Source of the DNA: Xylographa opegraphella
Taxonomy: Eukaryota
Length of the DNA: 64,000 nt
Reading direction: 5' to 3'
NCBI GenBank assembly: GCA_022813865.1
Contig: JALDZX010000027.1
Coordinates: forward strand, 62,001-126,000
A model generated the notes under the pieces. That model saw only the letters and a list, made by a program, of their open reading frames with translations, was not told the DNA's origin and did not search any database. Position 1 is the stretch's first letter. Every line of letters starts with the position of its first letter. Of this stretch, positions 43,458 to 51,659 are shown in pieces. The translations under genes and the position numbers were made by a program.

Positions 43458-46052
43458 TTAGCTCTTGAATGTGAAACTCTTGCCTGCGATTTCTTTCTTC
43501 GACTTCCTCATTGCTTTTGGAGCATTCAGCGACTTTGAGTACGGATCAAATGACGGCCTTGCGCCGCCGCGATCGTTCTTGTTTGGCTTTGCGTGTAAAA
43601 TGGAAGGCGCATTCGCGTAATCGAAAGGCTCCTCGGCCTCGTTTGCGTTGCGGCTTTCATTCCGGCTTGCTTGTGCTTTCTCTAGCTTTCTTTGAGCTCT
43701 CTTCAACTTTTTTTGAGCTTTTCGTGCCGCGTGCATGTCGGCTTTCTCAACTACATCAGTTGGAGCGATCTCCATTTCGTCATCGTTATGGTCCGCAACT
43801 TCTGGCACATCTGATGATTTGCTCTGGAATGACGGCTCTGGTGTGTCTTTCAGCTCAGTCGCTTTTCTTTTCCGGAGACCACCAAGCTCTTTTATCACAA
43901 ACACGTTGTCCCGAGGCACAGGCCGCTCTTTGACGAATTTGTGTTCAGCGAGGGAACCTGGATTTCCAGATGGGGTTGTGATGCCAACCTGATCATCTAT
44001 GTTTGGTGTGGTAAAGATATCGGCTGTAAGTGGAGGCAATGGTAGTGCAAGACGAATCTCTGGCAGCAGTTGTACTGACTGCTCCGTAGTTACATTATCG
44101 GTTTCGTTGACAGTGGCACCCCAAAACATGGAGCTCCGGCTTCGTATCGCCGCCACTGTTTGCCCAATCGAGAACGATGGCACAGTCTGCGACGATCCGA
44201 GTTTTGTTAATGGTAGAGATCTGGAGTAATACTCCTTCTCTTGGATAGACTCGAAGCTTGCTGCTTGTGCTTTCATAAATTCTTTCATGTCCGGACCCTG
44301 GGAGCCGTGAGCTTTCGCATCTCTGACAATAGCTAGCAATTCGATAATATGTCCATGCATGAATCGTGATATTGGATGTGAGCATGCCAATAACGCAGGC
44401 AATTCGACAGGCATCTCCCTTGCAATGTTGTAAATGACAATCTTTGGCATTATGAAATTCAGACTTTCATCATACCGTCTGGCAATATCGTCTCGCCAAC
44501 GATGCACAGCTCGGAAGATCGAGAACTGTTCTCTGCTAAACAAAGCTGGGGTGCGGTTAAGCATATTGTACCATCCAGTGGCGCCCATCCCACACTCCGT
44601 GTCATATAATTCTCTCTCGTACTTCCGCAACGCCACTTTCTTGGATTCTTCAAGAACAGTGTTGACGAGGTTCCCACTCTCGGACCGGGTTTCCGAACCG
44701 TCGATCAACTCATTCCTCATATGATCGTAGATATTAAGCAAAAAGTGGGTGTCTGATCGAGCATATTTGAACATCTGCTCAGGAAGAGGCCTTGAAATCT
44801 TGATTAGTAGTTTGGTAACAAAGGTAAACAAAGGACAAATCAAACCGGAGACGCCAGTCAGCTGTCTGATATTGCTTCTGTGCGTTGAAGTTTGCAAATT
44901 TTGAAAGTAACCAAGCCAGGCTGTGGCGAGGGTAATTGAGAGAAACTGAAGCATGATAAGTGTCGAATAATCCTACGATGTATAGGCCCAAGTCTCGTTG
45001 CAACCAGATGATATCCATGAATGCACCATGTAAAACCTGTCACCATCAGCTTTGTTGATGAAATTCGAGACTGAACTCACCTTCAAGATAGCCGGGTCTG
45101 CAAAAACTTCATTTAACATCTGGAGCTCCTCCCTCCATGGCTTTAGGGTATCAACCACCCAATCTTTCTCTCGTGTACTGACCTGCATCAGAGATACTAG
45201 TCCAATGTAAGAGTGTGTGTCATGATGTTCCAAATCTATTGCTATTTCTTTCGCGTTTCTTAGATCTGCAAGCATAGCTTCCACGCCTTCGACGGTGTCA
45301 ACAAAAGTCGCTGTGGTAGAGTCGAGGGATGAGTACGGAAGAGGATCAGCTTTGACATAGACTGGCGGTGGGTAGGTCGATTGAAGAATCTCAGTCTGAT
45401 ATGGATGCTTGTATCTAAAGTGTGTGTCAGTCGAATTCCTCATTACTTGACCACAATTAGTCAATGACATATAACATTGAAAATCATACTCTTCGACGCC
45501 ATCTTCTCTTGTGACTGGGCCTATACTTTCCTGGAGAGGAACTATCGCATGAGGTTTAGCACGAAGTAGTGGCTTAAAAGCATTGGTCTCTTGATTATCT
45601 GGCACTTTGTTGAAAAGCAATTGCGGTTTTGGTATATCTTGGGACTTCTGCTTAGAAGCAAACGACTTCCGAATGGTCATCGGAGCCGGTGTACTCGTCT
45701 GAGACGAGGTAAATTGTTTGTTGGTGCCTGTGTACTCGTCAAGGCCGACGTCCGTCTTTTCAAGAAGATGGTCAACGACATCGATAACTCCTTTCCGATT
45801 GTCCTCCACGTTTTCTTTGTCCAGCAGTTCAGGTGTGGCTGCTGCGCTGCCAGTAGCAGCACTTTGTATCAGTTTCTGTGCCAGACTGAGCGGTCGGCTC
45901 TTCTGTTCGTCCAGCTTGCGTGCCAACGCAGGGCCAGAAGATCGGTGGAAGGCGAGATCTTCCGCGGCACTCTGCCCTGTGGTACGGTTGGTGGCAGCCG
46001 GGCTCGCAGGGATACGGTCCTGGAGGGACGTGAACTGCTGGTTAGAGTCCAT
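43458..46052 (-). CDS. RRP6: Nuclear exosome 3'-5' exonuclease Rrp6 (PMC2NT, DEDDy, HRDC)
   Basis: [43 protein letters not shown] ([12 protein letters not shown]). Three introns. Confidence 0.93.
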
Positions 46053-47244
46053 CTCCAAAGCCTAAAATAGCTCCAGAAGCAACCGTGACATGGTAAATAA
46101 GTTATGACCACGTACTTCTTCGAGGATCGTGCATAAGGTAGTTGCTCAACTTTCATCACCTCGCTTTGATCCCTGCCCGGAAACTTTTATCGCGCAACGC
46201 ACGGACTCCCGCGTGCAGGCATCGATCAAGCAGATGCGCCTACTAGCGTGCCTCGTTTTAAGCGTCGTCGATATGTCCTCCAGATCGTGGACTGGAACTC
46301 AACGAGTTAATCCACAATCACATCTGGACAGCGCAAGCAAGGGCATGTCAGCATCGTTGGCCCCAGAGTGCAACGAGGTCAAAGAGTATGCAGTAGTGTG
46401 GCCTGTATGTTGGCAACGTCACTGACAGCTATTCAGCCGCTACGATTCATGTTTTTTGAAGTGGTATAGCGAGAGTGAGATGTTCTTGTCGGTATCAGGC
46501 GTGCCACTTACAGACCCCAACAGAGTACCTTCGTGGCAATTCTGTCACTGACGAATGCGAACCTCTTTTCAAGAAGTACAAGGAATGCTTGACGGTATGT
46601 TCCTGCACATAGCCACCTTTGAGCATGTCTCGAAACGTTGCTGACCGGCTCTTAGAAAGCTCTGAAGGATAGAGGGATAGACAAGATGCTGGAAGAGGCT
46701 CGAGAGGACAACAACAGCAACGACGCCGATAGTTTCAAATGGGGATCTAAGTCATGATGTGAACGTCAAGGTCTCCACTCGTTTTCGAGGATAGCTATGT
46801 AGACGCTGCGAGTATTGCAGCTGTTGATTCAAAGATACCCCATTCCATGCAAAGGATATTATCGCTTGTCATGCTTCTGTTAATAAACATCTACAACTAA
46901 GGTAGATATCCAAGTACGGCAAGTCATATATAAGTGAGTTCATTGTGCTTGACGCGGGTTCGCGCCTGAGGCTGAAGCAGCCGCTAGCTGCAGCGGGAAG
47001 TGCCGCTCTGCCGTAAGTTTCGCGGGCTCGAGCTGGAAGTAATTCTTGCACCACGGGGATGAGATCAATCGAGGATGTTTCATGACCTATCTTCAGTGAG
47101 AGTGATGTATCCGCTCCTCGAGGATTCCCTGCACTTTCCGATTCACTGCCTCCATAAGTCTATCTGTCTGCTCCGAAATTGATCGATTGCGGACGATAGT
47201 GAAGCATACCGACCCGTCAGTACCTAGTGAATGGAATTTGATTC

Positions 47245-47625
47245 ATGCACCCTTTCTCAGTTCTCACCCTTGGAATATTCGTCGCTGGGTACATAACCGC
47301 TCGTTGGGATCTGGTCACACGTCTGTATGAGCTTGCCATCTTTGCCTGGGATCACGGAGTCATTGTAGGTAAACCTGCAAGGCAGATTCGACATAGCTAA
47401 GATGGTGCCCTCTAGACTCGAGCAACCAGAGGCTTCGTCATACTATCGATCTTCTTTGTTCTCTTCATTTTACCAGTTGGGCGATTGGCGTTACGAGAAT
47501 CGGTTCAGGTATTGTGGGCTTCCTTGAGGCTTCATCTGGAGTCTTGCTCATGTTCACAGCACCCCAGATCAAAGGACAGTGGTATCTCTGCACGTGAGCA
47601 ATTAAGGAGGCGTGGATCGTTTTGA
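47245..47625 (+). CDS. 92-aa hydrophobic microprotein, 3 exons (47245-47364, 47416-47508, 47560-47625), immediately upstream of GPI1; absent from the ORF track
   Basis: Spliced MHPFSVLTLGIFVAGYITARWDLVTRLYELAIFAWDHGVI|TRATRGFVILSIFFVLFILPVGRLALRESVQ|HPRSKDSGISAREQLRRRGSF*. Two phase-0 51-nt GT-AG introns. Confidence 0.75.
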
Positions 47626-47645
47626 TCTCCAACGACAATGATATT

Positions 47646-49927
47646 ATGGCTGGTGGTAGTGGGCTTTTAAGAATATTTTGGCCGTCAGATGTCCCTCGCA
47701 ACAATCGACAAGGGACGATTGTGGGATGGAGAAATTCAGAGCTCGACTTCTTTGTAGTTTCGGTGCTGCAGGATGTAGAGGTTCGGTGACTTCTTGTCAA
47801 CTCGAACTTTCTAACCTGTATTCCTAGGCACGCAACGTTGAGAACGCCCTTCGAGTGGGCACTCTGTTTCGTAACAGCCCGCATCCAGTCGAGAGGCTAT
47901 TTCAATTATGCGAGAAATCGACAATGAATGTCCTCGGTATCGCAAACCCACGAGTCAAGCCAAGCTCCTTCGATCAGTTACAACTACATGTCTTCATAGA
48001 TGCGACAACAGGATTCCCACAAATATACTGTCCATGGGAATACAAGATGTCCGTCCAGATCATCGTCTTTGACAGGCCCTTTGCTAGAGCGATGCAATAT
48101 ATGTCTCTGGATCCAATTTCTCTGGCACTGAGCGATACCTCGAGAATGGTATCCCCTTATCTCGCCGACTTGGAAGAGAAGCCAAAATCCAATCTCATCC
48201 AGAAGCTTCGGTTACACACGGTTGTTCATCATTCATCATCAGTCAAGGAATTGATCTTACCTGTCATCCTCAGTCAGATCAATTGCTCCATGGAACTCTC
48301 AACCTTGCTCGTAAAGAATATCAACCTGATAGGTGCTAGGCAGAAGCGTAGTCTTAGTGTCAGCGAGAGGGTGGTAGAATCTGCAAATACTCTTTGGGAA
48401 TTTATTATAGTTGCTATTTGGCACGGCCTTACTGTTTGGATTTTCCCGGTACTCACTCAGGCTTTCATCATTGGACTGATCTGCCATCGCGGAATCGCAG
48501 AAGGCATTCTGCAAGTTCTTGATTGGAGAATTCGACCGGATTCAGCAGCATTGAAGGACGTATCCGCTACAGCTCAGCAAGTAGACATCCGGTTACAGCA
48601 ATTTTGCTATTGGCCCATTCAATATACTACACTTCGTCGAAGACGAGATGACTGGGACAGCATTACAGACAGGCATCCCGATTACATCCGCTTCTACAAT
48701 AGCCTTTGGCTGGTCGCGAACGACGTTATCATAGGTATCGCCTTGGGATCTTACATTATCGACAATGCGGATTGGGTGGCCGAATCGATCAACAGCTTTT
48801 TGACCAATTGGACCGTGCAAGGTTTACAAAGAATGATTGTCTGGCTGACTGACTGGCCTGCCGGATTAAAGCTCAACAATGAACTGGCCAGTTTTCTTGG
48901 TGACCTGTTCTTGTGGGTGATCGACTATTGGTCCCGTGAGTAATACAGATATGAGATTGCGTGATAGTGCTAACAAAATCAGAATGTGTTGATAATTTTC
49001 GGCCATTCTTGCCTCAGATAATCTATTTCATTGGCTTCTCGAGCTTTGCCGGTGCCAGCATGCCAATAGCTCTGTTCTCCGATCTTCTGTCTCTACTGAC
49101 TGTACATATTACCGCATTTTATCTTGCCTCCGCACGTATATACCACTGGCAATGGATAATACTAATATCTCTTTTTCACCTTTTCCGAGGGAAAAAGCAC
49201 AACGTTTTACGTAATCGAATCGATTCATGCGACTACGACCTGGATCAGCTGCTTTTGGGAACCATCCTATTCACTCTGCTCGTCTTTCTATTGCCAACAG
49301 TGCTTGTATTTTACCTAACTTTCGCTTCCGCGAGGATGGCCATCATCTTTCTAGAAGCTGCATTGGACACTTTACTGGCATGTTTGAACCACTTTCCGCT
49401 TTTTGCATTGATGTTGCGTGTAAAGGACTCGCGGCGTCTCCCAGGTAGGTTTATTCCTAGGGTTTGTCTGTGCATGGGCTAACACTGTACAGGCGGTATT
49501 TGCTTTGAACTTCGTGATACCCCTTCTAACTTGCTAAGCCCACTTGATTTCAACGAAATTCCACCTGTATCATACGTCGCATTGAAGGTACAACTTAGCT
49601 TGCGATTTTTCAGCCGATGGCAAAGCTAATGCTTAGAAACAGTCTGTCCCATTATCACTTCGAGCCACATTTGACCAGTATTTCCAGCTCGCAGAACGCA
49701 TACGCAAGCACTATCTCTCGACTCGTGTAGGTTTTCACCTCGCCACTGGTCGGTTTGTGCCTCCAATACACCGTAGAAATCTGTACAGTCTTCAGTATAG
49801 TATGCTGCCACTTCGGCGCTATGAGATCGGTGCGGTGTGGAAACGACTGACCGAGACACGGGTCTCGTCAAGCAATGGTACCTTAAAAATACCGAACGGA
49901 GTTCACCTCCGACGCACATATCGATAA
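47646..49927 (+). CDS. GPI1: GPI-GlcNAc transferase subunit Gpi1/PIG-Q
   Basis: LRIFWP...VGWRN start, YIRFYNSLWLVANDVIIG, WPAGLKLNNEL, LFRGKKHNVLRNRIDSCDYDLDQLLLGT. Four introns. Stop TAA 49925-49927. Confidence 0.93.
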
Positions 49928-50308
49928 ATGAAATAACATAAGCCGTCTTTTCGACCACTGCTTGTAAAACTGGTAAGATTCTGCATGCGGATTCTGTCAC
50001 ACAGTTCTCAGCTTTCTGGATCGAACTTTCCATGCTACTCAAGCCATATACAGGAACATCACATCCTTGAGCCATCTGCACTGGCAGTAGAATCGTGGCT
50101 GAAATACGTCCAGGATTTATTGACAACTTATTTGACGAAATTATGCTGCCTAATAGTACTGCTACAAGATTTCAGTAAAGCACGAAAGAAACGATCTTTA
50201 CACCCCTCAGACACAATATAAACGTCGTAACTGCAGTGCAACAGTACCGAGTATGAGCCAAACACTGCTGGCTTAAGACGCGAAATACACGATCAGCTCT
50301 ATAGCAGA

Positions 50309-51659
50309 TTATCGTGTCGTCCTGGGTGTTACAGCTTCACATTCAGCGGGTGTCCCGTCATGCCAGATCCCTCCACATCCAGCACAACGCTTAGCGCAGC
50401 CCTCCATTCCATCATCCGAGAAAGGCAATCCACCCAGATGTTGACCACAAATACACGTTCTTCCAAAAAAAATTGTCTCTGTCTTTCCCTTCACGACACC
50501 TGCTCCCACAATCTCTCTCCTGACTTCTTCCTCAGCCGCAAGGCGTATGCTGGTGCGCTCAAGCCATTGGATGCGACAGCGGAGGCAGTAATGCCACGAC
50601 TTCTTTTGTGAAGACTTTCCTGAAGACGCTTCGGAAGGCAGCTGGAGAGGGCACCTACAGTCGTTGTGACCGGTAGTCGATGGGAATTTGACCTTCGCTT
50701 CTTGCGTGCAGGCCATACACAAGGGGAGAAGAGCCGGCGTAAGTAGGTGTTCCCGGTAAGTCTGGATGTACTCATGTCCGGCAACAATACAGTGTCGACA
50801 AATCCCTTTACCCTCTCCTCTGTTCTTGGGGTCGTGTCTCCTTTTATTATCACACAGGATCACTTTCCCTTCATGTTCCAAATCCAGCTGCTCTTCGCCT
50901 GTGATAGGATGGAGGTAGCTTTCTGTACAGGTTGGTGATGACGGCTCTTGGGACTGGTTCCGACCAATGACTGTTCTTGTGTCAGAACGGATTGTAGGAC
51001 AAGGCTGGTCTTTAACGACATGTCCGAGGAAGATGTCACCCGGGGGTGCGGCGATTGGTGTTGCAGTTGTGGACAACGAAGAAGTCGTTTCCAGACCAAT
51101 GATTCCTGTGGCAAGCCGCTTACGAGGACGGCCTACCGGCCGGCGTGCAACCAGAGCCGCATTCGCTGAAGGTATCGCAGTCCTCGGGGTGTCGGCAGCG
51201 CCTATTTCTTCAACCACAGCTGCCGAATAGGACCGCTTTCGACTCTTCTTGCCCTCGGACGAGGCACAACCATCCAGCGTCTCCGGTATGGGCTTCATGT
51301 ATCCAGGAATCCTGCGTAGGAGCTCAATACGCAAGTCTTTGGGGAACACCTCACTGGCCAGAACTCTTTCTCTAACACTGATTGGGTAAGATAAGACGCG
51401 ATACTCTCCTGTCCTTGTGTTCGTGTAGTAGTCGACCTCAAAGCCTACACGCCTCCTCTCTTTACGGATCAGCCTTGCGTCGAGGTGTATATTAGCACCG
51501 ATCTGTTCATCACGCTTCTGTTTCTTCTCTGTTGTGTGATTTCCGATTTGAGCTGTGGGAGCAGTGTTGATGGAGAGGAGGTTCTTCTCTGCTGGATGTT
51601 GAGGCACTACCAAGCCGTTTTTGAGGATGTCGCTCGACGACTCGAACAAGATGGTCATG
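50309..51659 (-). CDS. Hypothetical protein with AT-hook and Cys-rich putative Zn-binding C-terminus
   Basis: Open frame of ~450 codons, RRPVGRPRKR AT-hook, NLS-like KKSRKR, several CxxC/CxC pairs. Start uncertain (ATG at ~51659 or GTG at 51691). Confidence 0.6.

Follow-up and report, generated by a model that had tools for sequence, protein, structure and literature searches.

A conserved gene for a predicted membrane-hairpin microprotein directly upstream of GPI1 in Pezizomycotina and its probable expression from a shared bicistronic mRNA

In the fungus Xylographa opegraphella, the gene GPI1, which encodes the Gpi1/PIG-Q subunit of the glycosylphosphatidylinositol (GPI) N-acetylglucosaminyltransferase (GPI-GlcNAc transferase, or GPI-GnT), lies immediately downstream of a small three-exon gene on the same strand. 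We analyzed this gene pair in a 64,000-nucleotide (nt) stretch of genome assembly GCA_022813865.1 (contig JALDZX010000027.1, positions 62,001 to 126,000 of the forward strand), referred to below as the window, from the first letter of which all positions are counted. Exon 1 of the small gene (47245..47364, plus strand; codons 1-40) encodes 40 amino acids (aa) that comprise an N-terminal hydrophobic helix and an amphipathic stretch, and is followed by a 51-nt GT..AG intron in phase 0 after codon 40 (47365..47415). Exon 2 (47416..47508; codons 41-71) contributes 31 aa with the second hydrophobic helix and is the most variable part of the protein, and intron 2 (47509..47559) is again a 51-nt phase 0 GT..AG intron, located after codon 71. 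Exon 3 (47560..47625; codons 72-92, with the TGA at 47623-47625) adds 21 aa that form a basic C-terminus ending in RRRGSF, so that the spliced open reading frame (ORF) specifies 40 + 31 + 21 = 92 residues. A sequence-only reading of the window had proposed exactly this three-exon ORF, with its stop at 47625 and two hydrophobic segments in its product. Translation bears out the ORF, automatic enumeration of all GT/GC..AG introns, scored against homologues, arrived at identical exon boundaries, and the AlphaFold2 model described below has two long helices. The start ATG of the small ORF has T at -3 and C at +4, and the lone internal ATG of the spliced ORF (47327..47329, plus strand) is out of frame, arises from a pair of Tyr-Glu codons and also has T at -3. 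A 139-aa minus-strand ORF that overlaps the small gene (47465-47884) contains no Pfam family and is taken as spurious.

The GPI1 gene (47646..49927, plus strand; exon 1, 47646-47780; the C-terminal ORF ends at 49927) starts with an ATG that has A at -3 and G at +4, and its downstream exons match the Pfam Gpi1 family PF05024 with E-values of 7e-40 and 8.8e-60. Among database proteins, the nearest Gpi1 is P0244 of Xylographa soralifera, which shows 91% identity across the 339-aa query and an equivalent annotated N-terminus, in agreement with the start that the earlier reading had placed at 47646. This relationship points to a lichen-forming Lecanoromycete, or a close relative of one, as the source of the window. 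The spacer between the stop of the small ORF and this ATG (47626..47645) is only 20 nt long. An additional ATG at 47638, with A at -3, lies 8 nt before the GPI1 ATG and out of frame with it; as had been noted from the letters of the window, it opens a mini-ORF of 10 codons plus TAA (47638..47670, plus strand; TAA at 47668-47670) that runs over the GPI1 start. A sequence search of the PDB found no solved relative of Gpi1/PIG-Q, and hence no complex structure for comparison.

The product of the small gene belongs to a widespread and highly conserved protein family. With the 40-aa exon 1 as the query, 1016 proteins among 1017 candidates matched at E ≤ 0.01, and identity was 90-100% among the 120 matches listed. 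Family members are named from Morchella, Orbilia, Botrytis, Cercospora, Fusarium, Aspergillus and Histoplasma, and many database matches from Eurotiomycetes, Dothideomycetes, Leotiomycetes and Sordariomycetes are exactly 92 aa long; entries that are longer or shorter are intron read-throughs at the same two intron positions. The members from Orbilia and Morchella indicate that the family spans the deepest branches of Pezizomycotina. A profile search against 1.84 billion representatives returned 252 matches at E ≤ 0.001, and among the named matches in the best 150 of these 252, none comes from outside Pezizomycotina.

Scanning of metagenome contigs with the most conserved peptides of the family yielded 225 confirmed stretches, from which 80 loci were kept; collapsing identical proteins left 51 distinct loci including the window, 48 of which extend to the GPI1 start. 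The length of 92 aa is shared by 46 of the 51 distinct modelled proteins, and the stop codon immediately follows RRGSF in 78/78 models. Where relatives possess the introns, intron 1 is located after codon 40 in 29/29 cases and intron 2 after codon 71 in 30/30. When 16 full-length proteins are aligned, hardly any variation is seen over the first 41 residues or in the C-terminal SAREQL.RRGSF. For the 46 distinct 92-aa coding sequences (CDSs), the ratio of nonsynonymous to synonymous proportional differences (pN/pS) has an overall value of 0.22; it is lowest in exon 1 (0.14), slightly higher in the C-terminal part (0.19) and highest in the middle (0.34), while synonymous sites are saturated (pS 0.68-0.85). 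The earlier reading would not have stood if the peptide showed no purifying selection; selection is evident, and these values indicate that the small gene is a real coding gene under strong constraint of this kind. Median identity to the window is 90% for exon 1 and 60.7% for exon 2 of the small ORF and 54% for the middle region of Gpi1; judged by these figures, the microprotein is more conserved than Gpi1 itself.

The adjacency of the two genes is equally stable. Of the 80 metagenome loci, 74 proved in a tblastn search to have GPI1 exon 1 directly downstream in the same orientation, and in the other six the contig ends either before exon 3 or at most 80 nt past the stop. The distance from the stop of the small ORF to the GPI1 ATG is 6-63 nt, with a median of 20, in 48/48 distinct loci. 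Synteny across Pezizomycotina, which the earlier reading had singled out as a check, therefore holds in every distinct locus where it can be followed, and its remark that a separate terminator and promoter would find no room between the ORFs is borne out both in the window and in its relatives. The Mdm35-like gene located upstream served as a synteny control: 30 distinct loci extend 1200 nt or more in that direction, and only 13 of them keep it.

The start codons of the two ORFs are embedded in characteristic contexts. At position -3 of the small ATG there is a pyrimidine in 51/51 distinct loci (T in 44 and C in 7), and position +4 is C in 50/51; at position -3 of the GPI1 ATG, a purine is present in 42 of the 48 distinct loci. 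Per 296 nt, the small CDS contains 0.95 ATGs, compared with 4.74 for the GPI1 CDS at these loci and 4.28 for the upstream 300 nt, which amounts to an approximately 5-fold depletion in the small ORF. The depletion extends to the off-frame triplets (0.88 observed vs 1.73 expected under synonymous resampling) and to the protein itself: the 51 distinct small proteins, with 4638 residues between them, lack internal methionine altogether, and none of the 64 variable columns ever contains methionine, compared with 116 of 538 in Gpi1. Across 121 database proteins of the family, there are three internal methionines in 11001 residues; the methionine fraction of Gpi1 is 2.5%. The scarce internal ATGs that do exist occupy fixed out-of-frame positions made by conserved residue pairs, such as the one at CDS offset 82 in frame +1 (47327 in the window), which is found in 32 of the 48 distinct loci tabulated for internal ATGs. 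Leaky scanning requires such a combination of a weak first AUG with an AUG-poor ORF behind it; independent transcription and pure reinitiation do not.

A separate observation concerns the sequence directly before the small ATG. In 7 of the 51 distinct loci (L017, L032, L036, L039, L041, L046 and L068), and not in the window, positions -3 to -1 are occupied by a stop codon, and in L041 (positions 166-180) this stop, abutting the small ATG, terminates a 3-codon mini-ORF with its ATG at 166. Such abutting stops may give one clade an additional means of controlling the start site.

The ATG that precedes the GPI1 start in the window is a recurrent feature as well. Among the 48 distinct loci, 28 have an ATG at exactly -8; the spacers are otherwise free of this triplet. 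A purine is found at its -3 position in 28/28 cases, while the five bases between the two ATGs vary. The mini-ORF that it opens is 3-10 codons long in 23 of these 28 loci and, in 10 of the 28, consists of three codons with its TGA overlapping the GPI1 ATG as ATGA. This pattern suggests that the -8 ATG is probably a conserved tuning device that competes for ribosomes with the GPI1 start or passes them on to it. In turnip yellow mosaic virus, initiation is known to be divided between AUGs that lie close together.

Transcript-derived sequences of relatives join the two ORFs. Contig L041 equals the genomic loci L050/L051 minus three introns, one in the small ORF and two in GPI1 (piecewise identity 99.4-100%), and consists of a 177-nt leader, the complete small ORF, a 20-nt spacer and GPI1. 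Contig L048 equals the genomic loci L032/L033/L035 minus four introns; it begins within the small ORF, at codon 15, and continues through GPI1. Five short contigs (L001, L014, L023, L025 and L046), probably also RNA-derived, are intron-free at every scorable position, begin 69-369 nt before the small ATG and run into or through GPI1. Public gene models often merge the pair: fused models include P0285 (797 aa, representing 110 member sequences), P0261, P0142 and P0150, along with a 777-aa cluster of 80 members in the ESM Atlas. The fused models leave out the invariant exon 3 or contain made-up junctions that vary from species to species. The frequency of such models shows that annotation pipelines see one unit.

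We propose, with a probability of about 0.7, that the small gene and GPI1 constitute one transcription unit, the bicistronic mRNA of which would have been kept since the origin of Pezizomycotina and from which GPI1 would be reached mainly by leaky scanning. The possibility of a bicistronic unit, raised in the sequence-only reading, is well supported by comparison, through the spacing in 48/48 loci, the spliced contigs of relatives that extend over both ORFs and the marks of leaky scanning; for the organism of the window, we infer that the two ORFs apparently reside on a single mRNA molecule. Under the proposed mechanism, both genes would be transcribed as one bicistronic mRNA, and translation of the first cistron would yield a two-helix membrane hairpin with the basic C-terminal tail RRRGSF. 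Given the poor context of the small AUG and the nearly AUG-free 276-nt ORF and spacer, many 40S subunits would then pass on to the better-placed GPI1 AUG. In the more than half of the lineages that possess a -8 AUG in strong context, the short overlapping ORF would tune the number of ribosomes that start on GPI1.

Several observations weigh against this proposal. The main one that it leaves unexplained is the -8 AUG itself, which, with its good context in 28/28 cases, should intercept ribosomes before the GPI1 AUG under simple leaky scanning. Furthermore, there are one or two out-of-frame AUGs, of weak context, within the small ORF in most lineages, the leader of L041 contains four ATGs, and 6 of the 48 loci have their GPI1 AUG in a poor context. 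The RNA-derived contigs all come from relatives and none from the organism of the window, and short-read assemblers can merge overlapping transcripts of neighboring genes, so that these contigs do not prove single molecules. Indeed, the first 114 nt of L048 (L048:1-114) have no match in the genomic copies and by eye resemble the beginning of a transcript of psbA, a photosystem II gene, which makes this contig an assembly chimera and a warning against taking assembled metatranscriptome contigs as proof of single molecules.

The same chimera, and the merging of overlapping transcripts that assembly might produce, could be cited in favor of two separate transcripts, with the small mRNA ending within GPI1, the promoter and start site of GPI1 located within the small gene and the short spacing reflecting compaction, and it is also the case that fungal genes are densely packed. 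Compaction, however, provides no explanation for the spacing in 48/48 loci while the neighbor on the other side changes (kept in 13/30); the weak first AUG and the avoidance of ATG and methionine are likewise left unexplained; and the seven intron-free contigs continue through GPI1 from points 69-369 nt before the small ATG or, in the chimeric L048, from codon 15, where its fungal part starts. We consider this arrangement improbable. Somewhat easier to accept, and still unlikely in our estimate, is a shared bicistronic mRNA on which GPI1 is reached mainly by termination and reinitiation after the 92-codon ORF, with the short spacer serving this process. A spacer of 6-63 nt in 48/48 loci is what such coupling needs, and among the 28 loci that have a -8 AUG there are 10 whose 3-codon mini-ORF ends on the GPI1 AUG in an AUGA stop/start overlap. 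Yet reinitiation does not need a weak first AUG or the avoidance of AUG and methionine, both of which are strongly selected. Moreover, conservation at third codon positions is lowest in the last exon (major-allele frequency 0.44), so that no embedded RNA element is apparent there, and reinitiation after an ORF of 92 codons is usually inefficient.

The small ORF could also be chiefly a regulatory upstream ORF (uORF) that acts in cis through stalling by its nascent peptide, or else an N-terminal extension of Gpi1 produced by exon skipping or readthrough. Stalling uORFs do have as their signature a conserved peptide encoded ahead of the main ORF, and the fused models (P0285, P0261, P0142 and the 777-aa Atlas cluster) are common enough to bring an extension to mind. 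The stalling peptides of the arg-2/CPA1 type, however, are short, at roughly 25 aa, unlike a 92-aa predicted hairpin (mean predicted local distance difference test score, pLDDT, 82.6) that is under selection along its whole length. With regard to an extension, the stop after RRGSF is present in all 78 models, the fused models skip the invariant exon 3 or use species-specific junctions, and the spacer in the window contains no AG acceptor. The spacer lengths of the 48 distinct loci are distributed evenly over all three frames (18/15/15 modulo 3), hence readthrough cannot yield a conserved fusion, and we reject a readthrough or fusion product. As a whole, this explanation appears very improbable. 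Expression of both proteins from one mRNA, with leaky scanning as the principal route to GPI1, remains the reading that we prefer, and the question of what the first of these proteins might do is considered next.

AlphaFold2, run with the family alignment, predicts helices at residues 3-36 and 39-71, with the abovementioned mean pLDDT and a less confident tail. Foldseek comparison of this model with the PDB gave no match at E ≤ 10, a profile search for PDB sequence relatives gave a single chance match at E 1.3, and hmmscan of five full-length homologues at E ≤ 10 detected no Pfam family in any of the five. When the exon pieces were compared with Pfam, just CD225 appeared, at chance level (E 0.1; 13.2 bits vs the cut-off of 27.1). 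The ESM Atlas returned clusters of the family itself and fused Gpi1 models, the remaining rows being unrelated bacterial and archaeal proteins with low scores. These results do not support sequence membership in PIG-Y/Eri1 (no Pfam family at E ≤ 10 in 5/5 homologues). The same applies to DPM3, the small two-helix subunit of dolichol-phosphate-mannose synthase, which is similar in length and in its basic C-terminus; here too, no Pfam family at E ≤ 10, a best PDB E-value of 1.3 and the absence of Foldseek matches speak against membership. Identity with Gpi1/PIG-Q is ruled out, given that PF05024 is absent from the 92-aa proteins and present in the downstream gene. The database names of the 92-aa proteins are either 'hypothetical' or 'phosphatidylinositol glycan class Q', and because the entries with the latter name lack PF05024, the label must have been carried over from fused gene models.

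The invariant charged residues in helix 1, together with the modelled hairpin, suggest a subunit that packs against other membrane proteins. A complex prediction for Gpi1 (P0273) and the small protein (P0088) of one species, made without alignments or controls, gave a score of 0.00 and a mark of 0.34, which argues neither way on binding. The invariant C-terminal RRRGSF fits the protein kinase A (PKA) consensus R-R-x-S-hydrophobic, and it also resembles arginine-based endoplasmic reticulum (ER) retention signals and C-terminal 14-3-3 motifs. One report describes an interplay between GPI-GnT and Ras-cyclic AMP-PKA signaling in yeasts (PMC11294708). The microprotein might have a direct role in the GPI-GlcNAc transferase, although we regard this as doubtful. 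In a more specific and rather improbable version, the ER GPI-GlcNAc transferase would have in the hairpin an unrecognized subunit or regulator peculiar to Pezizomycotina. One mRNA would supply it and Gpi1 in constant proportion, and RRRGSF would act as a PKA switch and possibly also as an arginine-based ER-retention signal or 14-3-3 site.

Three considerations weigh against a functional link to GPI synthesis. The Pfam, PDB, Atlas and Foldseek searches detected no similarity to PIG-Y/Eri1 or to any family. The human PYURF-PIGY pair encodes functionally unrelated proteins, a precedent from which it follows that a shared mRNA need not mean a shared function. Finally, a published table for Colletotrichum graminicola contains a BLAST-based ERI1 candidate (GLRG_01976) that does not neighbor the GPI1 gene (GLRG_02030) (PMC8949851 supplement).

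The same human pair is among the closest known counterparts of the arrangement as such. Its downstream ORF is reportedly reached by leaky scanning, in work attributed to Murakami et al. in 2005. Like PYURF-PIGY, the fungal locus would combine a GPI-GlcNAc transferase gene with a second conserved small ORF on one mRNA. Unlike in the human pair, the transferase subunit is the large downstream Gpi1/PIG-Q rather than the small PIG-Y, the upstream product is a predicted membrane hairpin with no detectable relation to PreY or any Pfam family, and the arrangement is confined to Pezizomycotina among the matches seen. Compared with Eri1 of yeast and PIG-Y of mammals, which are tied to the first step of GPI synthesis, the fungal microprotein is likewise small with two hydrophobic helices; there is, however, no sequence match, and Eri1 and PIG-Y are about 70 aa long vs 92 aa for the fungal protein. 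PYURF-PIGY is named among previously characterized bicistronic transcripts in a report that also describes STREMI, encoded on the SLC35A4 mRNA, as a 103-aa membrane microprotein (PMC13303939). The fungal locus resembles SLC35A4/STREMI and the MIEF1 microprotein in that a conserved upstream ORF of approximately 70-100 codons encodes a small protein before a conventional CDS, and differs from them in lineage and sequence and in the stop-to-start distance held at 6-63 nt; the human products are mitochondrial. Polycistronic transcripts have been reported in fungi as well, with 914 such transcripts from 321 loci in Iso-Seq data of Fusarium graminearum (bioRxiv 10.1101/2021.11.08.467853) and a two-gene operon in Glarea lozoyensis (PMC4471562). 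In the accessible portions of these sources, the polycistronic surveys required ORFs of at least 100 aa, so that a 92-aa ORF would be missed, and, unlike at the present locus, neither subphylum-wide conservation nor a leaky-scanning signature is described and GPI is not mentioned. A full-text literature search, the reach of which excluded subscription journals and bioRxiv supplements, found no published description of the small-gene/GPI1 locus.

While bicistronic genes as a kind are known, a deeply conserved fungal bicistronic gene with an uncharacterized microprotein would be new. Conserved protein-coding bicistronic mRNAs are rare in eukaryotes and hardly documented in ascomycete molds, and the locus could become a natural test case for how fungi handle leaky scanning and start codons that lie near each other. 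No family is assigned to the microprotein, which many public annotations mislabel or fuse; at minimum, GPI1 gene models need correction in hundreds of fungal genomes. GPI synthesis is essential and is already a target pathway for antifungal drugs, and the microprotein may be an overlooked partner or regulator of this pathway. Should it act together with Gpi1, then the fungal GPI-GlcNAc transferase has more subunits than are currently listed.

A few further observations concern GPI1 and its surroundings. Several Aspergillus models of approximately 1500-1660 aa (P0286, P0306, P0312, P0325, P0326 and others) consist of Gpi1 (PF05024) fused to a complete MutS/MSH2-type protein, and are probably further mis-fusions, in this case with the downstream neighbor. 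In four loci (L069:5416-7867, L070:5416-7887, L073:2667-3322 and L075:5398-6053), approximately 0.65-2.4 kb of extra sequence is located in the middle of GPI1, representing a large intron or an insertion. A search of positions 46000-50500 against Rfam gave one match, mir-2788 at 49469-49545 (plus strand) within GPI1, which scores 23.6 bits vs a gathering score of 62 (E 0.071) and is taken as chance. The upstream neighbor in the window (46345-46757, plus strand) encodes an Mdm35/UPF0203-like small CHCH protein that starts with MSASLAPECNE and whose C-terminal exon can also be recognized; in the fused Beauveria model P0150, the corresponding part is matched by PF05254, and in the 13 of 30 loci where this neighbor is kept, it lies 615-985 nt before the small ATG. 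The region is flanked by two minus-strand ORFs, 44973-46052 (359 aa) and 50309-51658 (449 aa), the first of which by eye appears to be part of an Rrp6-like 3'-5' exonuclease.

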